Source of the DNA: Escherichia coli
GTDB taxonomy: Bacteria > Pseudomonadota > Gammaproteobacteria > Enterobacterales > Enterobacteriaceae
Length of the DNA: 64,000 bases
Direction: 5' to 3' (one strand)
Assembly: GCF_050920415.1 (NCBI RefSeq)
Contig: NZ_CP169309.1
The notes beneath the pieces are model-generated. The model did not search any database. It was not told the origin of the DNA and saw only the letters and a list, made by a program, of their open reading frames with translations. Positions 2,996 through 43,419 of the stretch are shown one piece after another (the stretch's first letter is position 1; each line of letters starts with the position of its first letter). The translations under genes were made by a program, and so were the position numbers.

Positions 2996-4204
2996 CGTCC
3001 GCGAAATTACCGACGCAATTACGCAGGCAATCAATAAACCGGGGAGTAGCTGATACTCGCCGGTCATTTCACATATCATCAACGTCGACATAATCGGCGC
3101 GTGCGTGGTTGCCGCCAACAGTGTCGCCATCCCGGTTAATCCGAGTAAGAGTGTAATTTCTTCGCCGTCAGGAAACCATAACCCCAGGCTACGTCCATAC
3201 AACATGCCAATGGCAAGACCGATAAAGAGTGTCGGTGTAAACACACCACCAGGCGCGCCGGAACCGCTACTTGCCAGAACGGCAAACAGTTTGCAAAGGA
3301 AGATCCCGCCAATGATCATAAACAGTGGCGGGGCGGTTAAAAAGGATTGTACGGTGCTATAGCCGTTGCCCCACACGGCGGGGGTGAACAGGGAAAGCAG
3401 ACCCACGATCAACCCGCCGAGTGCCAGTTGCCAGGGGGGCGCAAGTTTGAGAATAACAAATCCTCGATGACTGGCGTTCATTAACGTTAACAACACTGGT
3501 CCGCATAGACCTGCCAGCACACCTGTACTGATAATCAGCGCATAGTCACGAGCCTGAACCGTCACTGAGAGTTGTACGCTGTAGAGTAACGCGTCGCTAT
3601 GATTAATCAGATTGCTAACCAGCAACGCCACGACGGCGGAAATAATCACCGGGCCGAGAGAGGCCAACATCATAGTGCCAAACAGCACTTCGGCTATAAA
3701 TAAACTGTCAGCAAGCGGGGCGCGGTAAGCCGCAGCCATTCCCGCCGCAGCTCCACAGGCAATCCATAATTTCCACTCCTGGCGTGGCGTAAAACGCTGA
3801 GCAAAACAGGAGGCGGCAAGGGCAGCTAAAAGAATCATCGCACCTTCGCGACCAATTGCGCTGCCGCTAGTTACTACCAGCAGAGAGGCAAGCGATTTAA
3901 CCAGGCTTGCTGCGTAATCGAATTTACCATCGGTTTGCAACGCTTCCATGTAATCGGTCGGCGCATGAGGGCGTTGCTGGGTAAATTTCTGCCAGCCCAT
4001 CAACAACAAACCCGCCGCCAGTCCGCCGAGCGCCGGAGTTAGCAGCCGTCGCCACGGAGAAAGATTCGTCGCTGCATTGACCAGACTGCCGGAGTCATTA
4101 TTGAGGAACAGCCATTCCAGTAGCAGCATCGCGTGACGAAACGCGGCAACGGCAAAGGCCGCAAGAATACCGACTATTGTTGCGATAAGCAGACGGCGAA
4201 ACAT
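2948..4204 (-). CDS. clcB: ClC-family voltage-gated chloride channel
   Basis: 418 aa from Met21 of ORF 2948..4264; multi-TM protein with ClC selectivity motifs (GSGIP-like, GREG); 3' end overlaps ynfK convergently. Confidence 0.9.
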
Positions 4205-20757: not shown

Positions 20758-20961
20758 TTACGGTGCTGTTTTAAGTCCTGCCGGGATTTCGTTATTGTCC
20801 ATGCGAATAACTTTCTCAACCGGATAACAGTTGCCGGGAATTTTCTGTTCCGCTGCGGCAGCCATGCATTCTTTCATTGAGTCATGTATACCAATAACAA
20901 GATCAACTGGCTCGCCCGTATTAAGAAAAACCGTCAGAACGAGTGCAAATGCTGTATTCAT
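20758..20961 (-). CDS. ydfD: YdfD-like small protein (lysis-associated protein of Qin-type prophages)
   Basis: 67 aa from MNTAFALVLTVFL within ORF 20758..21015; hydrophobic N-terminus; directly downstream of dicB as in Qin. Confidence 0.55.
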   Translation of the reverse strand: MNTAFALVLTVFLNTGEPVDLVIGIHDSMKECMAAAAEQKIPGNCYPVEKVIRMDNNEIPAGLKTAP

Positions 20962-21146
20962 TGCCAGTATCCTTTTTGCATCAGACGTAAACGGGCCAGC
21001 ATTGATACAATGCATATTTGATTTAATAGCTCCCGTTCGTGTTTTCTCTTATTAATGGCATCTTCAGTAAATACAGGGTTACTGATTCTGACACCAATTT
21101 CAAAACAACCTTCAGACGTATTAACGTTTGGTAATAACGTTTCCAT
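20958..21146 (-). CDS. dicB: cell division inhibitor DicB
   Basis: C-terminal 62 aa of ORF 20958..21242 (METLLPNVNTSEGCFEIGVRISNPVFTEDAINKRKHERELLNQICIVSMLARLRLMQKGYWQ) closely match the recalled K-12 DicB sequence. Confidence 0.85.
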   Translation of the reverse strand: METLLPNVNTSEGCFEIGVRISNPVFTEDAINKRKHERELLNQICIVSMLARLRLMQKGYWQ

Positions 21147-21334: not shown

Positions 21335-21387
21335 GGGCGGCAGAGCAGTCACGGAGTAAAACTGATACCGCCAAACGTCACCAGAAA
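21335..21387 (-). ncRNA. dicF: DicF small regulatory RNA (ftsZ-targeting sRNA)
   Basis: Minus-strand sequence TTTCTGGTGACGTTTGGCGGTATCAGTTTTACTCCGTGACTGCTCTGCCGCCC matches the 53-nt DicF followed by a T-run; about 190 bp upstream of dicB as in Qin. Confidence 0.8.
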
Positions 21388-21898: not shown

Positions 21899-22300
21899 CT
21901 ATTTCACAGTGTCGTTTAATGCCACTGGATGATATTCGCCTTGCTCTTTCGTTAGAGCTATCAGGGTGGCGACTCCCTGATGATGCAAAGATTGACGACC
22001 ATCATTCTCACGATGATATAAGTTGTTAAGTTCCAGTAGTTTGGCTTTTGCAATGGCCTCTACAGATTTCCAGAATTTGTGGGGGTCTGTACTCTCTTCC
22101 TGTTCGTCAGGAATGTTATTGTCCTCAACAGAAACAGAATACAGTCCGGTAAACGCATCGCGCACATTACGAGCCATATTATCAATGTCTTTTTTCGTTT
22201 CAGCTTCTAATGCAACTTCGTTCAGACGTTGACGAAGTGTATGTGCTGCAATTTCTTGGATTTCTTTTGGTAACTCTTTAAATTCCATAGTCAACCTCAT
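21899..22300 (-). CDS. hypothetical prophage early protein (pL operon)
   Basis: 133-aa ORF between the immunity region and dicF; no recognised motif. Confidence 0.45.
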   Translation of the reverse strand: MRLTMEFKELPKEIQEIAAHTLRQRLNEVALEAETKKDIDNMARNVRDAFTGLYSVSVEDNNIPDEQEESTDPHKFWKSVEAIAKAKLLELNNLYHRENDGRQSLHHQGVATLIALTKEQGEYHPVALNDTVK

Positions 22301-22530
22301 CAGTCAGTGTTTCTGGCTAACCAGCGATGCGCGCCAGTTTCGGTTTTAAACGTTTTGCTTTTGGTATATGTCATCGCGGTGAACGTACCGTCCTGGTTGG
22401 GGAACACGCCACATACCAGAGATTCGCTGTTGCCAAGATCGATAGTATCCATGCTGACCTCATTTCCCCTTAACGCCGGGGTGGCGGAACAAAAACCTGC
22501 TGCATAGTTAAAGTTGAACCCTGCCGTCAT
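22300..22530 (-). CDS. hypothetical prophage early protein (first gene of leftward operon)
   Basis: 76-aa ORF directly downstream of the putative pL/OL region. Confidence 0.4.
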   Translation of the reverse strand: MTAGFNFNYAAGFCSATPALRGNEVSMDTIDLGNSESLVCGVFPNQDGTFTAMTYTKSKTFKTETGAHRWLARNTD

Positions 22531-22620
22531 GTTCTTACGCCTCGGGCTGGCTACTTAACCCCTGACCACTGCCTGGTAACTCGAAGTATTGCCCTGCGTT
22601 CTGTGGGGCGGGGTGGTATA

Positions 22621-22650
22621 CTATAAAACTAAATCTATTTAGTTTTATAG
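22621..22650. promoter_or_regulatory. 30-bp near-perfect palindrome, candidate OL operator for the CI-like repressor (approximate coordinates)
   Basis: CTATAAAACTAAAT-CT-ATTTAGTTTTATAG with 14-bp arms; shares the TTTTAG/CTAAAA half-site with inverted repeats in the cI-cro intergenic region; preceded by TATACT. Confidence 0.4.
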
Positions 22651-22673
22651 TCAAGCGCGATCTAGATATATTT

Positions 22674-22697
22674 AAAAAAAGGTCGACAAAGCCGACC
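22674..22697 (-). terminator. rho-independent terminator downstream of the repressor gene (approximate)
   Basis: Minus-strand hairpin GGTCGGCTTTGTCGACC followed by a 7-T run, about 25 nt after the cI stop. Confidence 0.5.
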
Positions 22698-22721
22698 TCT
22701 GATTGAAAAACAAAGTGGAAG

Positions 22722-23366
22722 CTATAGGCTGAACTGCACACCTTTTGCTACAGCAACAATTTTACATTCAGGTGTCAGTAAGGACGATTGATAGCGAGGA
22801 TTGAGGGGGCTTAAATACACGAGTTTTCCGTCGATGACTAATTTTTTTATAGTCATAGATGGTTCGTTTGTAAGCGGATCTGGGACTATTACAGCGACGA
22901 TACTACCATTTTTATATTTTTCTCTAGGCCTCATGATCACTGTGGCACCAACCGGAATGCTTGGCGACCCTGATGGGTTGTGCATAGTGTCATCAGGCAT
23001 TGAAACGGCAAAATCCCCCTCCTTGACGTCAAAGAATGTGGTGATTCTGTCGGCATTTCCCATAGTTTTCTCTCCTTCTAAAATTAGGAAAGAAATTGCT
23101 TCCCCCCATGAAAGATAGGGGATTTGGGTGCCTGAATTGTTCTGCACAAGGGTAGGTTCAGTAGACGATACTCCATATAGGAGATAGGACTCAGTAGTTC
23201 CTAGTGCTTGGGCTAATTTACTAAGAGCTTTGCTACCGGGTTCGTTTAGGTCTTTCTCCCAGTACCCTATAGTTACCCCTGTTACGCCAGAAAGCTTGCC
23301 CAGTTCGACTTGGGTCAGTCCCTTGTCTTTTCTGAGTCTCTTAAGCCTAATGCCAAGGCTTTCCAT
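22722..23366 (-). CDS. cI: CI-like prophage repressor (HTH_XRE plus S24 LexA-like autopeptidase)
   Basis: 214 aa from third ATG (RBS GGGAG); N-terminal HTH (LTQVELGKLSGVTGVTIGYWE); C-terminal S24 fold with Ser in GDFAVSM and Lys in TIKKL; divergent to cro-like gene. Confidence 0.9.
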   Translation of the reverse strand: MESLGIRLKRLRKDKGLTQVELGKLSGVTGVTIGYWEKDLNEPGSKALSKLAQALGTTESYLLYGVSSTEPTLVQNNSGTQIPYLSWGEAISFLILEGEKTMGNADRITTFFDVKEGDFAVSMPDDTMHNPSGSPSIPVGATVIMRPREKYKNGSIVAVIVPDPLTNEPSMTIKKLVIDGKLVYLSPLNPRYQSSLLTPECKIVAVAKGVQFSL

Positions 23367-23372
23367 CATCAT

Positions 23373-23464
23373 CTCCCGTGAATTGAATATAAATTATTTT
23401 AGATTGCATTGACCTAAAAAAAATTATCCTTTAATCTAAAAATACTTAGTTTTAGGAGGGTGAA
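23373..23464. promoter_or_regulatory. divergent pRM/pR promoter-operator region (OR)
   Basis: TTGACC-17 nt-TAATCT promoter reading into cro; inverted repeats TTTTAG...CTAAAA and CTAAAA-N8-TTTTAG; AGGAGGG RBS before cro ATG. Confidence 0.6.
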
Positions 23465-23692
23465 ATGCGAGTTGATGAACTTGTCCAGTTTTTTGGCTCT
23501 GTTCAGAGAGTTGCCGATTTTTATGGGATAACCCGTGAAGCTATATACATGTGGCGCAAACGTCCTGGTGAAATAGTTCCCAAGGGGAGGGCCGCGGAAG
23601 CTGCCGCATACTCCAAGGGAAAATTATCTTTGAACCCAGAACTTTACAAAAAGAAGGATAACACCTTGAACGAAGGAAAGAATGATTCATGA
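23465..23692 (+). CDS. cro: Cro/DicC-like small repressor
   Basis: 75-aa ORF with strong RBS, divergent from cI; HTH-like segment (VADFYGITREAIYMWRK). Confidence 0.8.
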   Translation: MRVDELVQFFGSVQRVADFYGITREAIYMWRKRPGEIVPKGRAAEAAAYSKGKLSLNPELYKKKDNTLNEGKNDS

Positions 23693-24114
23693 AAATCAAG
23701 CATGAACACATCCGCATGGCTATGAATGCCTGGGCGCGTCCGGATGGTGAAAAAGTTCCGGCGGCCAAGATAACCAGGGCTTATTTCGAACTGGGAATGA
23801 CGTCCCCGGAACTGTACGACGACAGCCATCCAGAAGCCCTGGTTCGTAATACTCAGAAAATTTTCCGCTGGGTGGAGAAAGACACCACTGATGCGGTTGA
23901 AAAAATTCAGGCGTTGTTACCAGCAATCGAAAAAGCAATGCCACCTCTGCTGGTGGCCCGGATGCGCAGCCACAGTTCAGCCTATTTTCGGGAGTTGGTG
24001 GAGACGCGGGAACGACTGGTGAGAGACGCTGATGATTTTGTCGCAGTGGCAATCGCCGGTTTCAATCAGATGAATCGTGGTGGCCCGGCAGGAAATGCTG
24101 TGGTGATGCACTAA
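23689..24114 (+). CDS. YdaT-like (CII-position) regulatory protein
   Basis: 141-aa ORF start-overlapping the cro stop; position and size match the Cro(YdaS)/YdaT pairs of Rac-type prophages. Confidence 0.55.
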   Translation: MKIKHEHIRMAMNAWARPDGEKVPAAKITRAYFELGMTSPELYDDSHPEALVRNTQKIFRWVEKDTTDAVEKIQALLPAIEKAMPPLLVARMRSHSSAYFRELVETRERLVRDADDFVAVAIAGFNQMNRGGPAGNAVVMH

Positions 24115-24964
24115 AAGCACGGTGTTCGGGGTTTTTTATGAGCAGCAAGCTTCATGGTCTTGTCTGGGAAGGGTGCGCCTTCACCGGCATGATCTTATCC
24201 AGGGTGGCAGTAATGGCTCGCCTTGCAGACTACAGCAATGACGAAGGTGTGTCATGGCCTGCAGTGGAGACCATTCGTCGTCAGATTGGGGCAAAGAGTG
24301 AATCAACGGTTAAAGCGGCGATAGCGGAACTGGAAAAGAACGGCTGGCTGACGAAGGAGGAGCGTAAGGTCGGTGGGCGTAATGAAAGCAATATCTACCG
24401 CCTTAATGTGGAAAAACTCGAAGCAGCAGCTGAGGCGGCGCGTGAGGCATATAAACCGAAAAGAAAAATTAGCCCGGCAAAAAATGACCCGTTAACAGTT
24501 GACCAGTCAAATATTGCCCCCTCAACGGTTGACCCGTCAAATTTTGATGGATCAACCGTTGGTAAAAAACAGCCGGTTAGGGGGGCGATGGTTGGCCCCG
24601 ATCCGTCAGTATTAAAACCTGATCCGTCAGATAAAAGATCTTTTCGTCCGGAAGCTTCGCAACCGGACCCGCAGACGGCTGAACAGGATTTTTTAACCCG
24701 ACATCCTGATGCGGTTGTGTTTAGTGCAAAAAAACGTCAGTGGGGAACTCAGGAGGATTTGGCATGCGCACAGTGGATCTGGGGGCGAATCGTGAGTCTT
24801 TACGAACAGGCCGCCAGCGATGATGGCGAGATCACCCGACCGAAAGAACCCAACTGGACAGCATGGGCCAATGACGTGCGCATAATGCGGATGCTGGATG
24901 GCAGAACTCACAGACAAATCTGTGAACCGCCCCGGGTTTCCTGGAGAGTGTTTTATCTGTGAAC

Positions 24965-25831
24965 TCAGGCTGCCAGATCATTGTTTCCGATGGAAGCATA
25001 ATAAGCTTTTTCTGCTTCTGCCGGAGGAGTATGGCCCAGCCTTCCCAGCAATCGTCGATTGTTATACCAGTCCACCCACGTGAGTGTGGCCAGTTCCACT
25101 TCTGCACGGTTTTTCCAGCTCTTACGGTGTATTACCTCCGCTTTGTAAAGACCATTGATGCTCTCAGCCATCGCGTTGTCATACGAGTCGCCTGTACTCC
25201 CTGTTGATGCCAGCAGTTTTGCTTCTTTTAGTCGCTCCGTATAGGCCAGTGACACATACTGAGAGCCTTTATCGCTGTGATGGATGGTGCCAGACGGACG
25301 ACGGGCCCACAACGCCTGCTCCAGCGCATCCAGCACGAATGTCGTTTCCATAGACGATGAGACCCGCCACCCCACGATGTATCCGGCAAACACATCAATG
25401 ATGAACGCCACATAGACGAAGCCCTGCCATGTGCTGACGTAAGTAAAATCAGCCACCCACAGCTGGTCAGGACGTTCTGCCACGAACTGACGGTTTACGC
25501 GGTCACCTGTGGCAACGGTTTTCCGGCTGACGGTAGTGCGGACCTTTTTACCCCGGAGAACACCGGCAAGTCCCATAACCGCCATGAGGCGCGCCACTGT
25601 ACATCTGGCCACCCTGATTCCTTCCCGTAACAACTGACGCCAGACTTTACGCACACCGTACACCTGATGATTTTCATCGTATACGCGCTGTATCTCTCTC
25701 TTCAGCCAGTCATCGCGCTGCGCACGGGCACTGCGTTTATCAGGATGATGCCGCTGCTGCTGACAATGGTAATACGTTGACGGGGCAATATGCAGTTCAC
25801 TGCATACCGGTCCGACCCCCGTACTGCTCAC
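24965..25831 (-). CDS. IS3-family transposase OrfB (DDE integrase domain)
   Basis: 288-aa ORF with DDE catalytic region; expressed as OrfAB by -1 frameshift. Confidence 0.85.
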   Translation of the reverse strand: MSSTGVGPVCSELHIAPSTYYHCQQQRHHPDKRSARAQRDDWLKREIQRVYDENHQVYGVRKVWRQLLREGIRVARCTVARLMAVMGLAGVLRGKKVRTTVSRKTVATGDRVNRQFVAERPDQLWVADFTYVSTWQGFVYVAFIIDVFAGYIVGWRVSSSMETTFVLDALEQALWARRPSGTIHHSDKGSQYVSLAYTERLKEAKLLASTGSTGDSYDNAMAESINGLYKAEVIHRKSWKNRAEVELATLTWVDWYNNRRLLGRLGHTPPAEAEKAYYASIGNNDLAA

Positions 25832-25852
25832 GCAGCTTATCCAGCAGTGGCA

Positions 25853-26179
25853 TTATTTTTTCCAGAGGCGGTCGAACTCCGCCTTCGCAAAATAAGCGGA
25901 AGCCTGGCGAAGGATATCGTTACTGCGGCGCAGTTCACGATTTTCACGTTCCAGCTCTTTCAGACGCTGACGTTCAGCGGTGGTGAGCCCACCATCACCG
26001 CTCCCGGTATCCCTCTCATGCTGGCGAACCCAGACACGCAGAGTCTCTGGCGTACAGCCAATCTTTGGAGCAATGGAACAAATTGCCGCCCATTGTGAGT
26101 CATATTCGCCCTGACTTTCCAGAACCATACGAACTGCGCGTTGACGGACTTCGGGGGAAAAACGAGTATTTTTAGTCAT
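25853..26179 (-). CDS. IS3-family transposase OrfA (HTH and leucine zipper)
   Basis: 108 aa, [19 protein letters not shown]...; recognised IS629-type OrfA. Confidence 0.85.
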
Positions 26180-26454
26180 CCTGTTTACCTCTTTCTCAGG
26201 AAGTTTAGTCTCCAGGATTTCCGGGGCGGTTCACTGCGAAATGTTTGGTCGGGTACAGCGGGATCCATTCTGGGTAAAAAACATCATGAGCCCGTCAAAA
26301 CTTCGCGATAAATGGGATGAGCTGGTTATCCGTCTGGGGCGTTCGCCTGTACAGCGTTGTGTGAATCATATTTCTGAACCTGACACCGAAATTCCACCAG
26401 GGTTCAGGGGGTAGGTATTGATTTCAGATCATGAGGTAATTTTCAGGAGGACTT

Positions 26455-35591: not shown

Positions 35592-36677
35592 ATGGCTAAT
35601 ACTGTAAAAATATCCAGTTGTGAGTTAATCAACACTGATTGCCTGGAATTTATCCAGACCTTATCGGAAAACTCTGTCGATCTTATAGTCACAGACCCGC
35701 CATATTTTAAAGTGAAGCCCGAGGGCTGGGATAACCAGTGGAAGGGCGACGATGATTACCTAAAATGGCTGGACCAGTGTCTGGCTCAGTTCTGGCGGGT
35801 ACTGAAGCCTGCCGGAAGTCTTTACCTGTTTTGTGGTCATCGCCTGGCATCTGATATCGAAATCATGATGCGTGAGCGCTTTAATGTGCTGAACCACATT
35901 ATCTGGGCGAAGCCGTCCGGACGCTGGAACGGGTGCAACAAAGAAAGCCTGCGGGCGTATTTCCCGGCAACAGAGCGCATTCTGTTTGCCGAACATTATC
36001 AGGGGCCATATCAGCCAAAAAATGCCGGCTATGCGGCAAAGGAGCGCGAGCTTAAACAACACGTCATGGCCCCGCTGATTTTTTACTTTCGTGATGCGCG
36101 TGAATCACTGGGAATAACGTCCAAACAGATAGCGGAAGCCACCGGAAAGAAAAACATGGTGTCGCACTGGTTTGGTACCAGTCAGTGGCAGTTACCGAAC
36201 GAAGCTGATTACAGAAAACTGCAGGCGCTGTTCGCGCGTGTTGCAGAAGAAAAACACCAGCGTGGGGAGCTGGCAACGCCACACCAACTGCTGGTCAGCA
36301 CATACAGTGAACTGAACCGGCAATATGCCAGTCTGCTTGAGGAATACAAATCTCTGCGGCGTTATTTTTCTGTATCGGCCGCCGTTCCTTATACGGATGT
36401 CTGGACGCATAAGCCCGTACAGTATTATCCGGGTAAGCATCCCTGCGAAAAACCGGCGGATATGTTGCGTCAGATAATTTCTGCCAGCAGTCGTCCGGGG
36501 GATGTGGTTGCGGATTTTTTTATGGGATCGGGGGCAACAATAAAAGCAGCAATGGGATTGGGGCGTCGCACGATTGGGGTTGAACTTGAGTCCGGGCGTT
36601 TTGAACAAACAGTTGGTGAAATATTGGTGCTGAACGATAAATTGCGAAATGCACAATTAGATAAGAACAGGAGCTAA
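35592..36677 (+). CDS. beta-class DNA methyltransferase (N6-adenine or N4-cytosine), orphan
   Basis: 361-aa ORF; motif IV DPPY near N-terminus (LIVTDPPYF) and motif I near C-terminus (DVVADFFMGSGAT); no adjacent restriction gene. Confidence 0.85.
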   Translation: MANTVKISSCELINTDCLEFIQTLSENSVDLIVTDPPYFKVKPEGWDNQWKGDDDYLKWLDQCLAQFWRVLKPAGSLYLFCGHRLASDIEIMMRERFNVLNHIIWAKPSGRWNGCNKESLRAYFPATERILFAEHYQGPYQPKNAGYAAKERELKQHVMAPLIFYFRDARESLGITSKQIAEATGKKNMVSHWFGTSQWQLPNEADYRKLQALFARVAEEKHQRGELATPHQLLVSTYSELNRQYASLLEEYKSLRRYFSVSAAVPYTDVWTHKPVQYYPGKHPCEKPADMLRQIISASSRPGDVVADFFMGSGATIKAAMGLGRRTIGVELESGRFEQTVGEILVLNDKLRNAQLDKNRS

Positions 36678-39562: not shown

Positions 39563-39726
39563 TTCAAAAAACGAAAGAACGGAGGTACGTATGTACGCAC
39601 TGAAAAAGATTACGGTAACTGAAGATGGTCGTCAGTAGACTGGCCCCCTGAATCTCCAGACAACCAGTATCACTTAAATAAGTGATAGTCTTAATACTAG
39701 TTTTTAGACTAGTCATTGGAGAACAG

Positions 39727-40092
39727 ATGATTGATGTCTTAGGGCCGGAGAAACGCAGACGGCGTACCACACAGGAAAAGATCGCAATTGTTCAGCAGAG
39801 CTTTGAACCGGGGATGACGGTCTCCCTCGTTGCCCGGCAACATGGTGTAGCAGCCAGCCAGTTATTTCTCTGGCGTAAGCAATACCAGGAAGGAAGTCTT
39901 ACTGCTGTCGCCGCCGGAGAACAGGTTGTTCCTGCCTCTGAACTTGCTGCCGCCATGAAGCAGATTAAAGAACTCCAGCGCCTGCTCGGCAAGAAAACGA
40001 TGGAAAATGAACTCCTCAAAGAAGCCGTTGAATATGGACGGGCAAAAAAGTGGATAGCGCACGCGCCCTTATTGCCCGGGGATGGGGAGTAA
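39727..40092 (+). CDS. insC: IS2 transposase InsC (OrfA)
   Basis: 121 aa from [18 protein letters not shown]...; recognised IS2 InsC. Confidence 0.9.
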
Positions 40093-40955
40093 GCTTAGTC
40101 AGCCGTTGTCTCCGGGTGTCGCGTGCGCAGTTGCACGTCATTCTCAGACGAACCGATGACTGGATGGATGGCCGCCGCAGTCGTCACACTGATGATACGG
40201 ATGTGCTTCTCCGTATACACCATGTTATCGGAGAGCTGCCCACGTATGGTTATCGTCGGGTATGGGCGCTGCTTCGCAGACAGGCAGAACTTGATGGTAT
40301 GCCTGCAATCAATGCCAAACGTGTTTACCGGATCATGCGCCAGAATGCGCTGTTGCTTGAGCGAAAACCTGCTGTACCGCCATCGAAACGGGCACATACA
40401 GGCAGAGTGGCCGTGAAAGAAAGCAATCAGCGATGGTGCTCTGACGGGTTCGAGTTCTGCTGTGATAACGGAGAGAGACTGCGTGTCACGTTCGCGCTGG
40501 ACTGCTGTGATCGTGAGGCACTGCACTGGGCGGTGACTACTGGCGGCTTCAACAGTGAAACAGTACAGGACGTCATGCTGGGAGCGGTGGAACGCCGCTT
40601 CGGCAACGATCTTCCGTCGTCTCCAGTGGAGTGGCTGACGGATAATGGTTCATGCTACCGGGCTAATGAAACACGCCAGTTCGCCCGGATGTTGGGACTT
40701 GAACCGAAGAACACGGCGGTGCGGAGTCCGGAGAGTAACGGAATAGCAGAGAGCTTCGTGAAAACGATAAAGCGTGACTACATCAGTATCATGCCCAAAC
40801 CAGACGGGTTAACGGCAGCAAAGAACCTTGCAGAGGCGTTCGAGCATTATAACGAATGGCATCCGCATAGTGCGCTGGGTTATCGCTCGCCACGGGAATA
40901 TCTGCGGCAGCGGGCTTGTAATGGGTTAAGTGATAACAGATGTCTGGAAATATAG
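40050..40955 (+). CDS. insD: IS2 transposase InsD (OrfB, DDE)
   Basis: 301-aa ORF; recognised IS2 InsD; overlaps insC for -1 frameshift fusion. Confidence 0.9.
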
Positions 40956-41236
40956 GGGCAAATCCAGTCAGGTTGAGGAAGTGCATGTCCTGGGGGGATA
41001 TGTATCGTATGGAGTTTTACCCGCGTAATACCCATCTGGCAGCAAAAATTGAGTATTGCCGGAACGGGAATATTTCATGTTTGCAGGTAGAGAAAACGGA
41101 TGAGGCTTATATCACTACGCTGAACGGCGATACGATGTCAGCGCCAATGATATAAGACAGTAATTCACCATTTGGATTGTCCGCTCCACCCAACATGTTG
41201 TTTCCTTAAGGTTCCTACACCACAAAGGGAACACTC

Positions 41237-43202
<1,966 letters not shown>

Positions 43203-43419
43203 TGACCAATAGCGGACATTAAAAATGGCGAAAAACGGCCAATAATCTTGGCGTTGACAACGATGCGTTGCATCTGTCGCGGCGACAGTAAAGCCCGGAA
43301 TGAAATGGCCAGATGTCGTACTCATACCAGTGAATAACAAGTAAAACCCCGGCGGCTGAAACAACCAAGGGGTTAACAGTGTAAATAAAACTGCCCATAT
43401 TGATGGGCAGCGCATGTAA

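Follow-up and report, generated by a model that had tools for sequence, protein, structure and literature searches.

A P22-like layout of predicted CTAA operators in the immunity region of an Escherichia coli lambdoid prophage

Three described genetic switches, those of phages P22 and lambda and of the prophage CP-933P (also Sp12) of E. coli O157:H7, offer the closest comparison for the control region analysed here. In P22, the three operators of OR start at offsets 0, +25 and +48, and their half-sites (ATTTAAG, AGTTAAG and ACTAAAG in record BK000583) follow the pattern AnTwAAG. The -35 element of pR overlaps the middle operator at +22 to +27, and the annotated pRM -10 element, TAAGAT, lies within the cI-proximal operator at +9 to +14. 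The P22 repressor, C2, carries a canonical GDSM nucleophile motif and an Ala-Gly cleavage site. Lambda has divergent cI and cro genes, an OR of three sites of which the middle one is weak, OL at pL, and the gene of an establishment activator downstream of cro; its operators are 17 bp long and unrelated in sequence to those described below, its cI is leaderless, Rex genes stand between cI and OL, and its CI carries the Ala111-Gly112 site and, as canonical pair, Ser149/Lys192. CP-933P encodes PaaR2, YdaS and YdaT. In that prophage, paaR2 is leaderless, its product has been described as being without sequence similarity to lambda CI, and four 18-bp palindromes with the half-site GTTTAGTAA have been reported (PMC8630535, PMC9986795). 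The YdaT protein of this prophage has been called a cII equivalent (PMC9986795).

The window (the whole stretch of E. coli DNA that was analysed, 64 kb) contains the immunity region of an E. coli lambdoid prophage. The prophage is of a common lambda-like E. coli type, and its control region is built like the P22 switch. An original prediction, made from the letters of the DNA, had proposed a CI repressor (helix-turn-helix, HTH, plus S24 domain) and a Cro protein, and the profiles HTH_3, Peptidase_S24 and P22_Cro agree with this. The cI repressor gene is the open reading frame at 22722–23372 on the minus strand, which matches HTH_3 (E = 2e-12) and Peptidase_S24 (E = 1e-10; PF00717, 41.8 bits against a cut-off of 23.3). 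It opens with three ATG codons (23372, 23369 and 23366), and RefSeq annotates the 214-aa form that starts at 23366. The solved domain closest to the N-terminal HTH is that of P22 C2 (1adr, E = 2.5e-7; together with 2r1j and 3jxb, E about 1e-7), CI and C2 being 30–31% identical over their full length, and the C-terminal domain is homologous to the lambda CI structures 3bdn and 1f39 (E about 1e-5). The cro gene (23465–23692, plus strand, 75 aa) diverges from cI across a spacer of 92 bp. Its product belongs, like P22 Cro, to the Pfam family P22_Cro (PF14549, E = 1e-9; 38.2 bits, above the cut-off of 30.2), has N15 Cro as its closest structure (PDB 2hin, E = 2.6e-4), and resembles DicC-type proteins, matches in phage records being annotated as 'protein DicC'. 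Both genes have a ribosome-binding site, GGAG for cI and AGGAGG (23454–23459) for cro, so that cI differs in this respect from the leaderless genes of lambda and CP-933P. Where lambda has its Rex genes, only the intrinsic terminator of cI is found (22668–22700, minus strand), with a G+C-rich 10-bp stem (22700–22678) followed by a T-run, at -13 kcal/mol.

Downstream of cro, the place of P22 cII is taken by its functional equivalent ydaT (23689–24114, plus strand, PF06254), whose product is near-identical in family to the YdaT of CP-933P and matches the solved structures 8bt1 (E = 2e-78) and 3c4r (E = 5.5e-86). An inverted repeat, ATGATTCATGAAAATCAA, lies at 23682–23699, across the cro stop and the ydaT start, and has one mismatch to TTGATT-N6-AATCAA (PMC9986795); a repeat of this type occupies the same junction in CP-933P, and the one found here is probably the pRE control site. 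The pL operon starts with ydfA (DUF1391, 22300–22452, minus strand), again as in CP-933P, and includes DicF (an RNA, 76.7 bits), dicB, exo, xis and int, as well as DUF1482. The left operons of Qin (DicA/DicC/DicF/DicB) and Rac share ydfA, DicF RNA, dicB and DUF1482 with it. CP-933P is also similar in having repeated palindromic operators that overlap pR, pRM and pL (predicted in the present case), but its regulators are of another kind: it has PaaR2 where this prophage has an HTH_3 plus S24-like CI, and YdaS where this prophage has a Cro of the P22_Cro type, on which the YdaS profile scores 16.1 bits, under its cut-off of 30. The repressor is thus not of the PaaR2 or RacR type, and Cro falls outside the YdaS family. 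Nor is the repressor DicA; its C-terminal S24-like domain is full-length.

The repeated unit of the control region is a 20-bp putative operator, AAWCTAA-N6-TTAGWTT, with the core CTAA-N6-TTAG; in the 18-bp frame used for P22 the same motif reads AWCTAAR-N4-YTTAGWT. In the 64 kb, where 0.02 matches with at most one mismatch would be expected, there are three, each of them at OL or OR. When the OL palindrome alone is used as a template, the cI–cro spacer contains a 13/14 match, which was equalled in 5 of 20,000 dinucleotide shuffles of this AT-rich sequence. A repeat search likewise pairs 22626–22647 at OL with 23433–23454 at OR (82% identity), in line with the earlier suggestion that a palindrome beyond the cI terminator is an OL-like element with sites related to those of OR. 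The predicted operator a, equivalent to OR3 and adjoining cI, lies at 23386–23405 (AATATAA ATTATT TTAGATT, 13/14) and contains the proposed -10 of pRM. It is unchanged across 26 close variants, and scores 14/14 in the Arsenophonus-like, Yersinia and Morganella relatives. The weak operator b, predicted as the OR2 equivalent, starts 25 bp further on (23411–23430, GACCTAA AAAAAA TTATCCT, 9/14) and overlaps the -35 of pR. After another 22 bp starts the predicted operator c, equivalent to OR1 and adjoining cro (23433–23452, AATCTAA AAATAC TTAGTTT, 14/14), which overlaps the -10 and the predicted start site of pR. On the left, the predicted operator OL1 (22626–22645, AAACTAA ATCTAT TTAGTTT, 14/14) forms the core of a 32-bp palindrome at 22620–22651, and a degenerate candidate OL2 (22659–22678, GATCTAG ATATAT TTAAAAA) lies 33 bp from it, overlapping the T-run of the cI terminator; OL2 scores 9/14 here and 11/14 in most E. 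coli relatives. For b and OL2, each at 9/14 in the window, the argument is mainly their positional conservation. Positions 1–7 of the frequency matrix derived from the sites are partly circular, since the sites were picked with the motif. In the library of papers that was searched in full text, none contained any of three operator-containing strings.

The promoters fit this arrangement. Between cI and cro, TTGACC (23409–23414) and TAATCT (23432–23437) can be read on the plus strand with 17 nt between them, as had been proposed for a pR-like promoter, and transcription is predicted to start near 23444. The pattern TTGAYN-17-TAnnAT occurs at the same position in eight divergent lineages. The -10 of pR fits the consensus at just 3/6 positions, which is why a consensus scanner did not list this promoter. 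For pRM, the proposed -10 is TAAAAT (23396–23401, minus strand, start predicted near 23389); TAARAT is kept in 8/8 lineages at +9 to +14 of operator a, which is where the annotated pRM -10 of P22 lies as well. An alternative -10, TATATT (23391–23386), would put b at -41.5, the lambda arrangement, but was demoted because TAAAAT is conserved in all lineages and has the P22 offset. The predicted pL (22626–22654, minus strand) consists of TTGACT (22654–22649), 17 nt and TAGTTT (22631–22626); among the relatives its -35 is invariant, and its -10 is TAGATT, TAGTTT or TATATT. In the pL leader, a block at about 22505–22590 is conserved, but a structured RNA was not supported there: no Rfam match rose above noise, and RNAalifold gave 0/15 predicted pairs as compensatory.

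Set beside P22, the three OR operators start at 0/+25/+47 instead of 0/+25/+48, the -35 of pR overlaps the middle operator and the -10 of pRM lies within the cI-proximal operator at the same offsets as in that phage, and both systems have operators of 18–20 bp with an unconserved central spacer of 4–6 bp, which in the present case are predicted. The half-sites are different, AWCTAAR here against AnTwAAG in P22, and the operator AnTwAAG-N4-CTTwAnT that would mark the same immunity is not the one found. As the core has CTAA where P22 has TTAA, cross-immunity with P22 is not expected; the same layout with a different half-site suggests a distinct immunity specificity. The residues of the recognition helix differ as well (SNVAISQWERS in P22, TGVTIGYWEKD here). 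The geometry of the 434 operators, ACAA-N6-TTGT, is compatible with the core spacing of this motif, yet homology and layout favour P22 over a 434-like reading.

Close relatives were sampled in 50 IMG/VR loci and four annotated records, which gave 27 variants of OR and 35 of OL. The operator arms are kept among these variants; at OL1 there is no change in the right arm, the left arm is near-invariant (positions 3–4 vary), and the spacer is variable (ATCTAT, AAGTAT, GAATAT or AATAAT). Such close E. coli relatives are weak evidence on their own because of recent shared ancestry, and it is the cross-genus relatives that carry the argument. Relatives with 42–68% CI identity come from Salmonella, Symbiopectobacterium, Yersinia and Morganella and from Arsenophonus- and Xenorhabdus-like contigs; they retain the HTH segment GV[ST]GV[TSA][IV]GYWEKD, their OR sites recur at offsets 0/+25/+47–49, and an OL1-type site is also present in distant relatives, with OL sites 33–35 bp apart wherever OL was found. 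The Salmonella relative has no OL within 220 bp of cI, since another gene is inserted there. When all 4-mer gapped palindromes with gaps of 0–16 were ranked in eight divergent cI–cro spacers, CTAA-N6-TTAG came first: it is present in 7 lineages (null maximum 4) and occurs 11 times (null maximum 5). Of 5,426 complete E. coli genomes, 472 (about 9%), O157:H7 included, contain 80% or more of the 1.8-kb region. In 50,697 phage records, and among the matches listed, a CI more than 90% identical occurs only in two partial prophage-derived genomes, and the next-best full-length match is at about 35%.

The operators can be read differently, and the original prediction did so by taking the hexamer TTTTAG/CTAAAA as the half-site, with two operators at OR, TTTTAG-N11-CTAAAA (23397–23419) and CTAAAA-N8-TTTTAG (23436–23455), and the whole 30-bp palindrome as OL. 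All four hexamers are present (23397–23402 and 23450–23455 in the plus, 23414–23419 and 23436–23441 in the minus orientation), and 4 of the 29 copies in the window fall within a 59-bp stretch between cI and cro, although the window as a whole is not enriched (29.2 expected). The first of the two repeats is conserved among E. coli relatives, and TTAG-N11-CTAA ranks second in frequency among the gapped palindromes of the lineages (5/8). As operator units, however, the two repeats do not hold: they are opposite in arm orientation and unequally spaced, and one symmetric dimer could therefore not read both alike. The first is a junction, composed of the right arm of operator a and the left arm of operator b, and TTAG-N11-CTAA is an arithmetical by-product of two CTAA-N6-TTAG sites standing a fixed 25 bp apart. 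In the second, the right-hand TTTTAG overlaps the Shine-Dalgarno sequence of cro and is not conserved, being shifted by 1 nt in most E. coli relatives, which changes the spacing, and lost in O157-type variants; AATCTAA-N6-TTAGWTT is kept throughout. The OR of the Xenorhabdus-like relative has no CTAAAA, and the OL palindrome contains neither hexamer in exact form, its arms facing CTAA...TTAG. This palindrome does have the near-perfect symmetry that had been claimed for it (two 15-nt arms, 22620–22634 and 22637–22651, that are 100% complementary and separated by 2 nt), but what is conserved is the 20-bp core, and the outer arms are peculiar to the lineage. A hexamer half-site is, in our view, highly improbable.

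Another reading would give the palindrome at 22620–22651 no part in repression and see it as a hairpin or terminator in the RNA, or else as an element of recombination or structure. A 14-bp A-U hairpin could form in the transcript of this lineage (-13.2 kcal/mol, z = -5.9), but most relatives, while they keep the 20-bp core, have a hairpin of only 0 to -4.6 kcal/mol. A check for a terminator, which the original prediction had named as one way to refute an operator, came out against one, as no U-run follows the almost wholly A-U stem on either strand and the actual cI terminator is about 30 bp to the right. The core moreover adjoins the invariant TTGACT, overlaps a -10-like hexamer and matches the OR sites, which leaves the hairpin reading with hardly any likelihood. 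Somewhat different is the proposal that only a, c and OL1 are true operators of a bipartite switch, b and OL2 being chance resemblances of promoter and terminator sequences in AT-rich DNA. This would fit with the score of b, 8–11/14 in every lineage, with a left arm of b that falls on the -35 of pR, and with a right arm of OL2 that consists of the terminator's T-run. Chance would, on the other hand, have to account for a +25 offset that is constant in 10 lineages, for the retention of TAA and TTA at the expected positions of b (each in 6/8 divergent lineages), for a complete CTAA-N6-TTAG core at b in the Xenorhabdus-like relative, and for a second OL site (12–14/14, 33–35 bp from OL1) in five distant lineages, namely the Xenorhabdus-like, Arsenophonus-like, Yersinia, Morganella and metagenome relatives; P22, too, has a real OR2 at this offset. 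We consider a bipartite switch unlikely.

Very probably, then, this is a lambdoid prophage's genetic switch with a layout homologous to OR and OL of P22, in which CI and Cro bind the 20-bp operators. Dimers of CI, with their P22 C2-like HTH domain, and Cro would both recognise AAWCTAA-N6-TTAGWTT. CI on c and b would cover the -10 and -35 of pR and shut off cro and ydaT, the filling of b presumably depending on cooperative binding, and occupation of a would cover the -10 of pRM and shut off cI. OL1 would cover the spacer and the -10 of pL, with the degenerate OL2 33 bp upstream. YdaT, at the inverted repeat of the cro/ydaT junction, would be expected to give an establishment burst of cI.

The S24 domain that had been predicted for CI is found by profile, but its canonical Ser nucleophile and Ala-Gly site are absent. 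The nucleophile motif reads DDTM, with Thr in place of the Ser of G-D/N-S-M, and Thr is found in 51/51 close relatives as well as in the Salmonella, Yersinia, Symbiopectobacterium, Arsenophonus and Sodalis relatives. The general-base Lys is present in an invariant KKLV (the K-K/R-L motif). The linker WGEAISF aligns with WVSAGQW of P22 and HVQAGMF of lambda and has Ala-Ile, so there is no Ala-Gly or Cys-Gly; across the CI clade, the residue following Ala is I, M, T, K, V or L. Judged from these residues, CI appears to have lost its usual self-cleavage site. A broader proposal, which we make tentatively and hold to be slightly less probable than its opposite, is that a widespread enterobacterial clade of CI proteins keeps a P22-type switch whose half-site has shifted from TTAA to CTAA and whose S24 domain cannot cut itself in the usual way. 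If this is true, the replacement of Ser by Thr and the missing Ala-Gly bond would exclude RecA-stimulated self-cleavage of the repressor as the route of prophage induction, and an antirepressor or another trigger would be needed. Alternatively, the strictly conserved Thr might be a working nucleophile that acts on a non-canonical site. In the near-identical prophage of strain MB07081, nine genes that are hypothetical or have a poor annotation were compared with PHROGs, and none was recognisable as an antirepressor. Literature searches on non-cleaving S24 repressors gave nothing specific to this CI, and a search for the two closest phage records by name gave no evidence of induction and just one in-silico prophage survey. 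A scan for LexA boxes returned eight loose matches, the best two inside coding sequence.

The general picture of lambdoid switches is unchanged by this. What is gained is a concrete operator consensus and promoter map, both predicted, for an immunity type that is absent from cultured, characterised phages and nonetheless common among E. coli prophages. With a layout that is the same and half-site and recognition-helix residues that differ, the system offers a natural comparison with the P22 C2–operator structures, useful for the evolution of HTH specificity, and its degenerate S24 site is relevant to the question of which prophages of E. coli are open to SOS induction.

The repeated unit of this immunity region is a 20-bp symmetric site, AAWCTAA-N6-TTAGWTT, found on both sides of the repressor gene cI (22722-23366/23372, minus strand; HTH_3, E 2e-12, and Peptidase_S24, E 1e-10). 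A repeat search pairs the palindrome left of cI (22626-22647) with the cro-proximal part of the cI-cro spacer (23433-23454) at 82% identity. At one mismatch or fewer, a scan of the whole window gives three sites against 0.02 expected: OL1, the core of the palindrome (22626-22645, 14/14), OR-a, nearest cI (23386-23405, 13/14), and OR-c, nearest cro (23433-23452, 14/14). Two poorer matches are candidate operators, a weak OR-b between a and c (23411-23430; GACCTAA AAAAAA TTATCCT, 9/14) and a degenerate OL2 (22659-22678, 9/14), 33 bp from OL1. To escape circularity, the arms of OL1 alone were used as template for the 92-bp cI-cro spacer, where they give matches of 13/14 and 11/14; when this AT-rich spacer is dinucleotide-shuffled, 5 of 20,000 shuffles reach 13 and none reaches both values. 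Symmetrised over 34 sites, the half-site reads AAWCTAARWW, where T5, A6 and A7 vary little or not at all and C4 has a frequency of 79%; positions 8-10 had played no part in choosing the sites.

Among close relatives, 50 IMG/VR loci encoding CI relatives and four annotated records yield 27 different OR sequences and 35 different OL sequences. The OR set shows essentially no change in site a, site c or the pR -35. Throughout the OL set TTAGTTT, the right arm, and TTGACT, the -35, do not vary; the left arm occurs as AAACTAA, AATCTAA, AATATAA or AATGTAA, and the 6-bp spacer has four versions. Kept arms around a varying spacer are the pattern expected for an operator that is contacted in its arms and free in its spacer. 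More telling are divergent lineages (Salmonella, Symbiopectobacterium, Yersinia, Morganella, Arsenophonus-like and Xenorhabdus-like contigs, and one metagenome contig), where CI is 42-68% identical and the spacers are otherwise hard to align. The HTH segment GV[ST]GV[TSA][IV]GYWEKD is kept across these CI proteins, so a conserved operator is expected. Every one of them has copies of the motif between cI and cro, at offsets 0, +25 and +47-49, with the middle site overlapped by TTGAYN and TAnnAT 17 bp beyond. Wherever OL was found left of cI it has two sites 33-35 bp apart (three in Morganella); in the Salmonella relative, which has another gene inserted there, the 220 bp next to cI yielded none. 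When every 4-mer gapped palindrome (gaps 0-16) is counted in eight such spacers, without bias towards any, CTAA-N6-TTAG ranks first, with 11 occurrences in 7 lineages; in 500 shuffles the best palindrome of any kind does not exceed 4 lineages and 5 occurrences.

The original prediction had built the operators on TTTTAG/CTAAAA half-sites, and every element it named is present at its position: four hexamer copies (23397, 23414, 23436 and 23450), a TTGACC-17-TAATCT promoter sequence (23409-23437) and, left of cI, a palindrome with perfect 15-nt arms (22620-22634 and 22637-22651). The hexamers are not enriched in the window (29 observed, 29.2 expected), yet four lie within 59 bp. The proposed kinship of OL and OR stands, whereas the unit that they share is the 20-bp site and not the hexamer. 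The first OR repeat, TTAG-N11-CTAA, ranks second in the palindrome count and is a by-product, because two CTAA-N6-TTAG sites 25 bp apart necessarily generate it. The second is not conserved: its TTTTAG, which in the window overlaps the AGGAGG of cro, is displaced by 1 nt in most relatives (CTTAGATTTTAGG) and absent from O157-type relatives (CTTAGATTTGGGAGG). Reading the palindrome as a terminator was rejected, as its stem is nearly all A-U and lacks a U-run; its hairpin of -13.2 kcal/mol also falls to between 0 and -4.6 in most relatives, yet the 20-bp core is retained. Chance symmetry in AT-rich DNA is rejected by the window scan, the spacer shuffles and the palindrome count.

The closest solved relative of the CI N-terminal domain is P22 C2, and the OR layout is homologous to that of P22, since operators, pR -35 and pRM -10 stand at matching offsets. 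In an 18-bp frame the start positions of the operators are 0, +25 and +48 in P22 (AGTTAAG-TCAT-CTTAAAT, ACTAAAG-ATTC-CTTTAGT and ATTTAAG-TGTT-CTTTAAT in the annotated record) and at 0, +25 and +47 in the window. The pR -35 occupies +22 to +27 in both (P22 TTGACT, window TTGACC), and the pRM -10, on the minus strand, +9 to +14 of the repressor-gene-proximal operator (P22 TAAGAT, window TAAAAT), where TAARAT is found in all eight lineages. From this anatomy and the P22/lambda paradigm, CI at c and b would occlude the -10 and -35 of pR, the promoter of cro (23465-23692, plus strand; P22_Cro, E 1e-9). Site a contains the pRM -10, so that cI would be shut off when Cro, or CI at a high level, fills the site, and OL1 would cover the spacer and -10 of pL (TTGACT-17-TAGTTT, minus strand). 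A GGAG ribosome-binding site precedes cI, which is not leaderless. Where cro stops and ydaT starts (23689-24114, plus strand; E 2e-78 against the YdaT_toxin-domain chain of PDB 8bt1), the inverted repeat ATGATTCATGAAAATCAA (23682-23699) is one mismatch from TTGATT-N6-AATCAA, the footprinted YdaT operator; in CP-933P, whose YdaT has been described in structure and as a cII equivalent (PMC9986795), a pRE-associated site is also at the cro/ydaT junction (PMC9986795, PMC8630535). It is likely that ATGATTCATGAAAATCAA controls pRE, the establishment promoter of cI, because of this position and not of match frequency, YdaT-type matches at two mismatches or fewer being no more common in the window than chance (6 against 4.1 expected).

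In the S24-like domain of CI (residues about 88-92 and 124-128), alignment places DDTM where lambda CI and P22 C2 carry G(N/D)SM, with Thr for the nucleophile Ser, and WGEAISF where they have the Ala-Gly bond, Ala-Ile here; the Lys is retained. This combination is common to 51/51 close relatives and extends to homologues from Salmonella, Yersinia, Symbiopectobacterium, Arsenophonus and Sodalis, which form a clade with the E. coli proteins. Xenorhabdus CI proteins have the Ser and lack Ala-Gly, and the most distant group, Morganella-type CI, is fully canonical (GDSM and QAG). The usual kind of self-cleavage is thus unlikely, and the strict conservation of Thr leaves room for a non-canonical activity. 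Among nine hypothetical or poorly annotated genes of the near-identical MB07081 prophage, a PHROGs search recognised no antirepressor.

The switch belongs to a lambdoid prophage (16.5-48.9 kb of the window) that is 99.5-99.98% identical by block to one of E. coli MB07081, two insertions excepted. Leftward from cI come its terminator (stem 22700-22678, minus strand), the palindrome and an operon of ydfA (DUF1391), DicF RNA, dicB, DUF1482, exo, xis and int. The DicF antisense sRNA (21335-21386, minus strand; Rfam RF00039, 76.7 bits) is upstream of dicB, as in the Qin prophage. In the pL leader (about 22505-22590, minus-strand transcript), a block of ~60-85 nt, made up of AAGTAGCCAGCCCGAGGCGTAAGAACATGACGGC and the sequence upstream, hardly changes among E. 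coli relatives and can be recognised, despite diverged flanks, in an Arsenophonus-like locus, L053 (two copies), and a Symbiopectobacterium locus, L059; it has no Rfam match and no covariation. In L053 a canonical nut-like site, CGCTCTTTAAC ... CGCTGAAAAAGCG, follows the block (about 3400-3440, plus strand), and ORFs 1730-2041 and 3441-3911 have N-like arginine-rich motifs; neither an obvious N gene nor boxB was seen in the pL operon of the window. LexA-box-like sequences occur at the dicB/DUF1482 junction (TGCTGTATTCATTGCCAGTA, 20950-20969) and right where the prophage gene for a DNA methyltransferase begins (35592-36677; TACTGTAAAAATATCCAGTT, CTG-N10-CAG, 35600-35619). The MB07081 prophage lacks about 3.6 kb (39636-43259) that in the window separates the lysis genes from the Bor/terminase region. 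An IS3-family element (24927-26233; orfA 25853-26179, orfB 24965-25831, ALIL frameshift pseudoknot 25781-25898) splits the replication-initiator gene (O-like, HTH_36) that starts at 24138 and is uninterrupted in MB07081, so the window copy is probably replication-defective.

The operator strings are absent from papers in a full-text literature search. Among 50,697 phage records this CI is found in only two genomes, both partial and prophage-derived, and the next-best full-length match among those listed is ~35% identical. The half-site is AWCTAAR against AnTwAAG in P22 (CTAA against TTAA), and the recognition helix TGVTIGYWEKD against SNVAISQWERS, differences that point to an immunity specificity separate from that of P22. 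Systems of this kind are thoroughly known, and the switch in the window is therefore a new member among them, with a newly defined operator.
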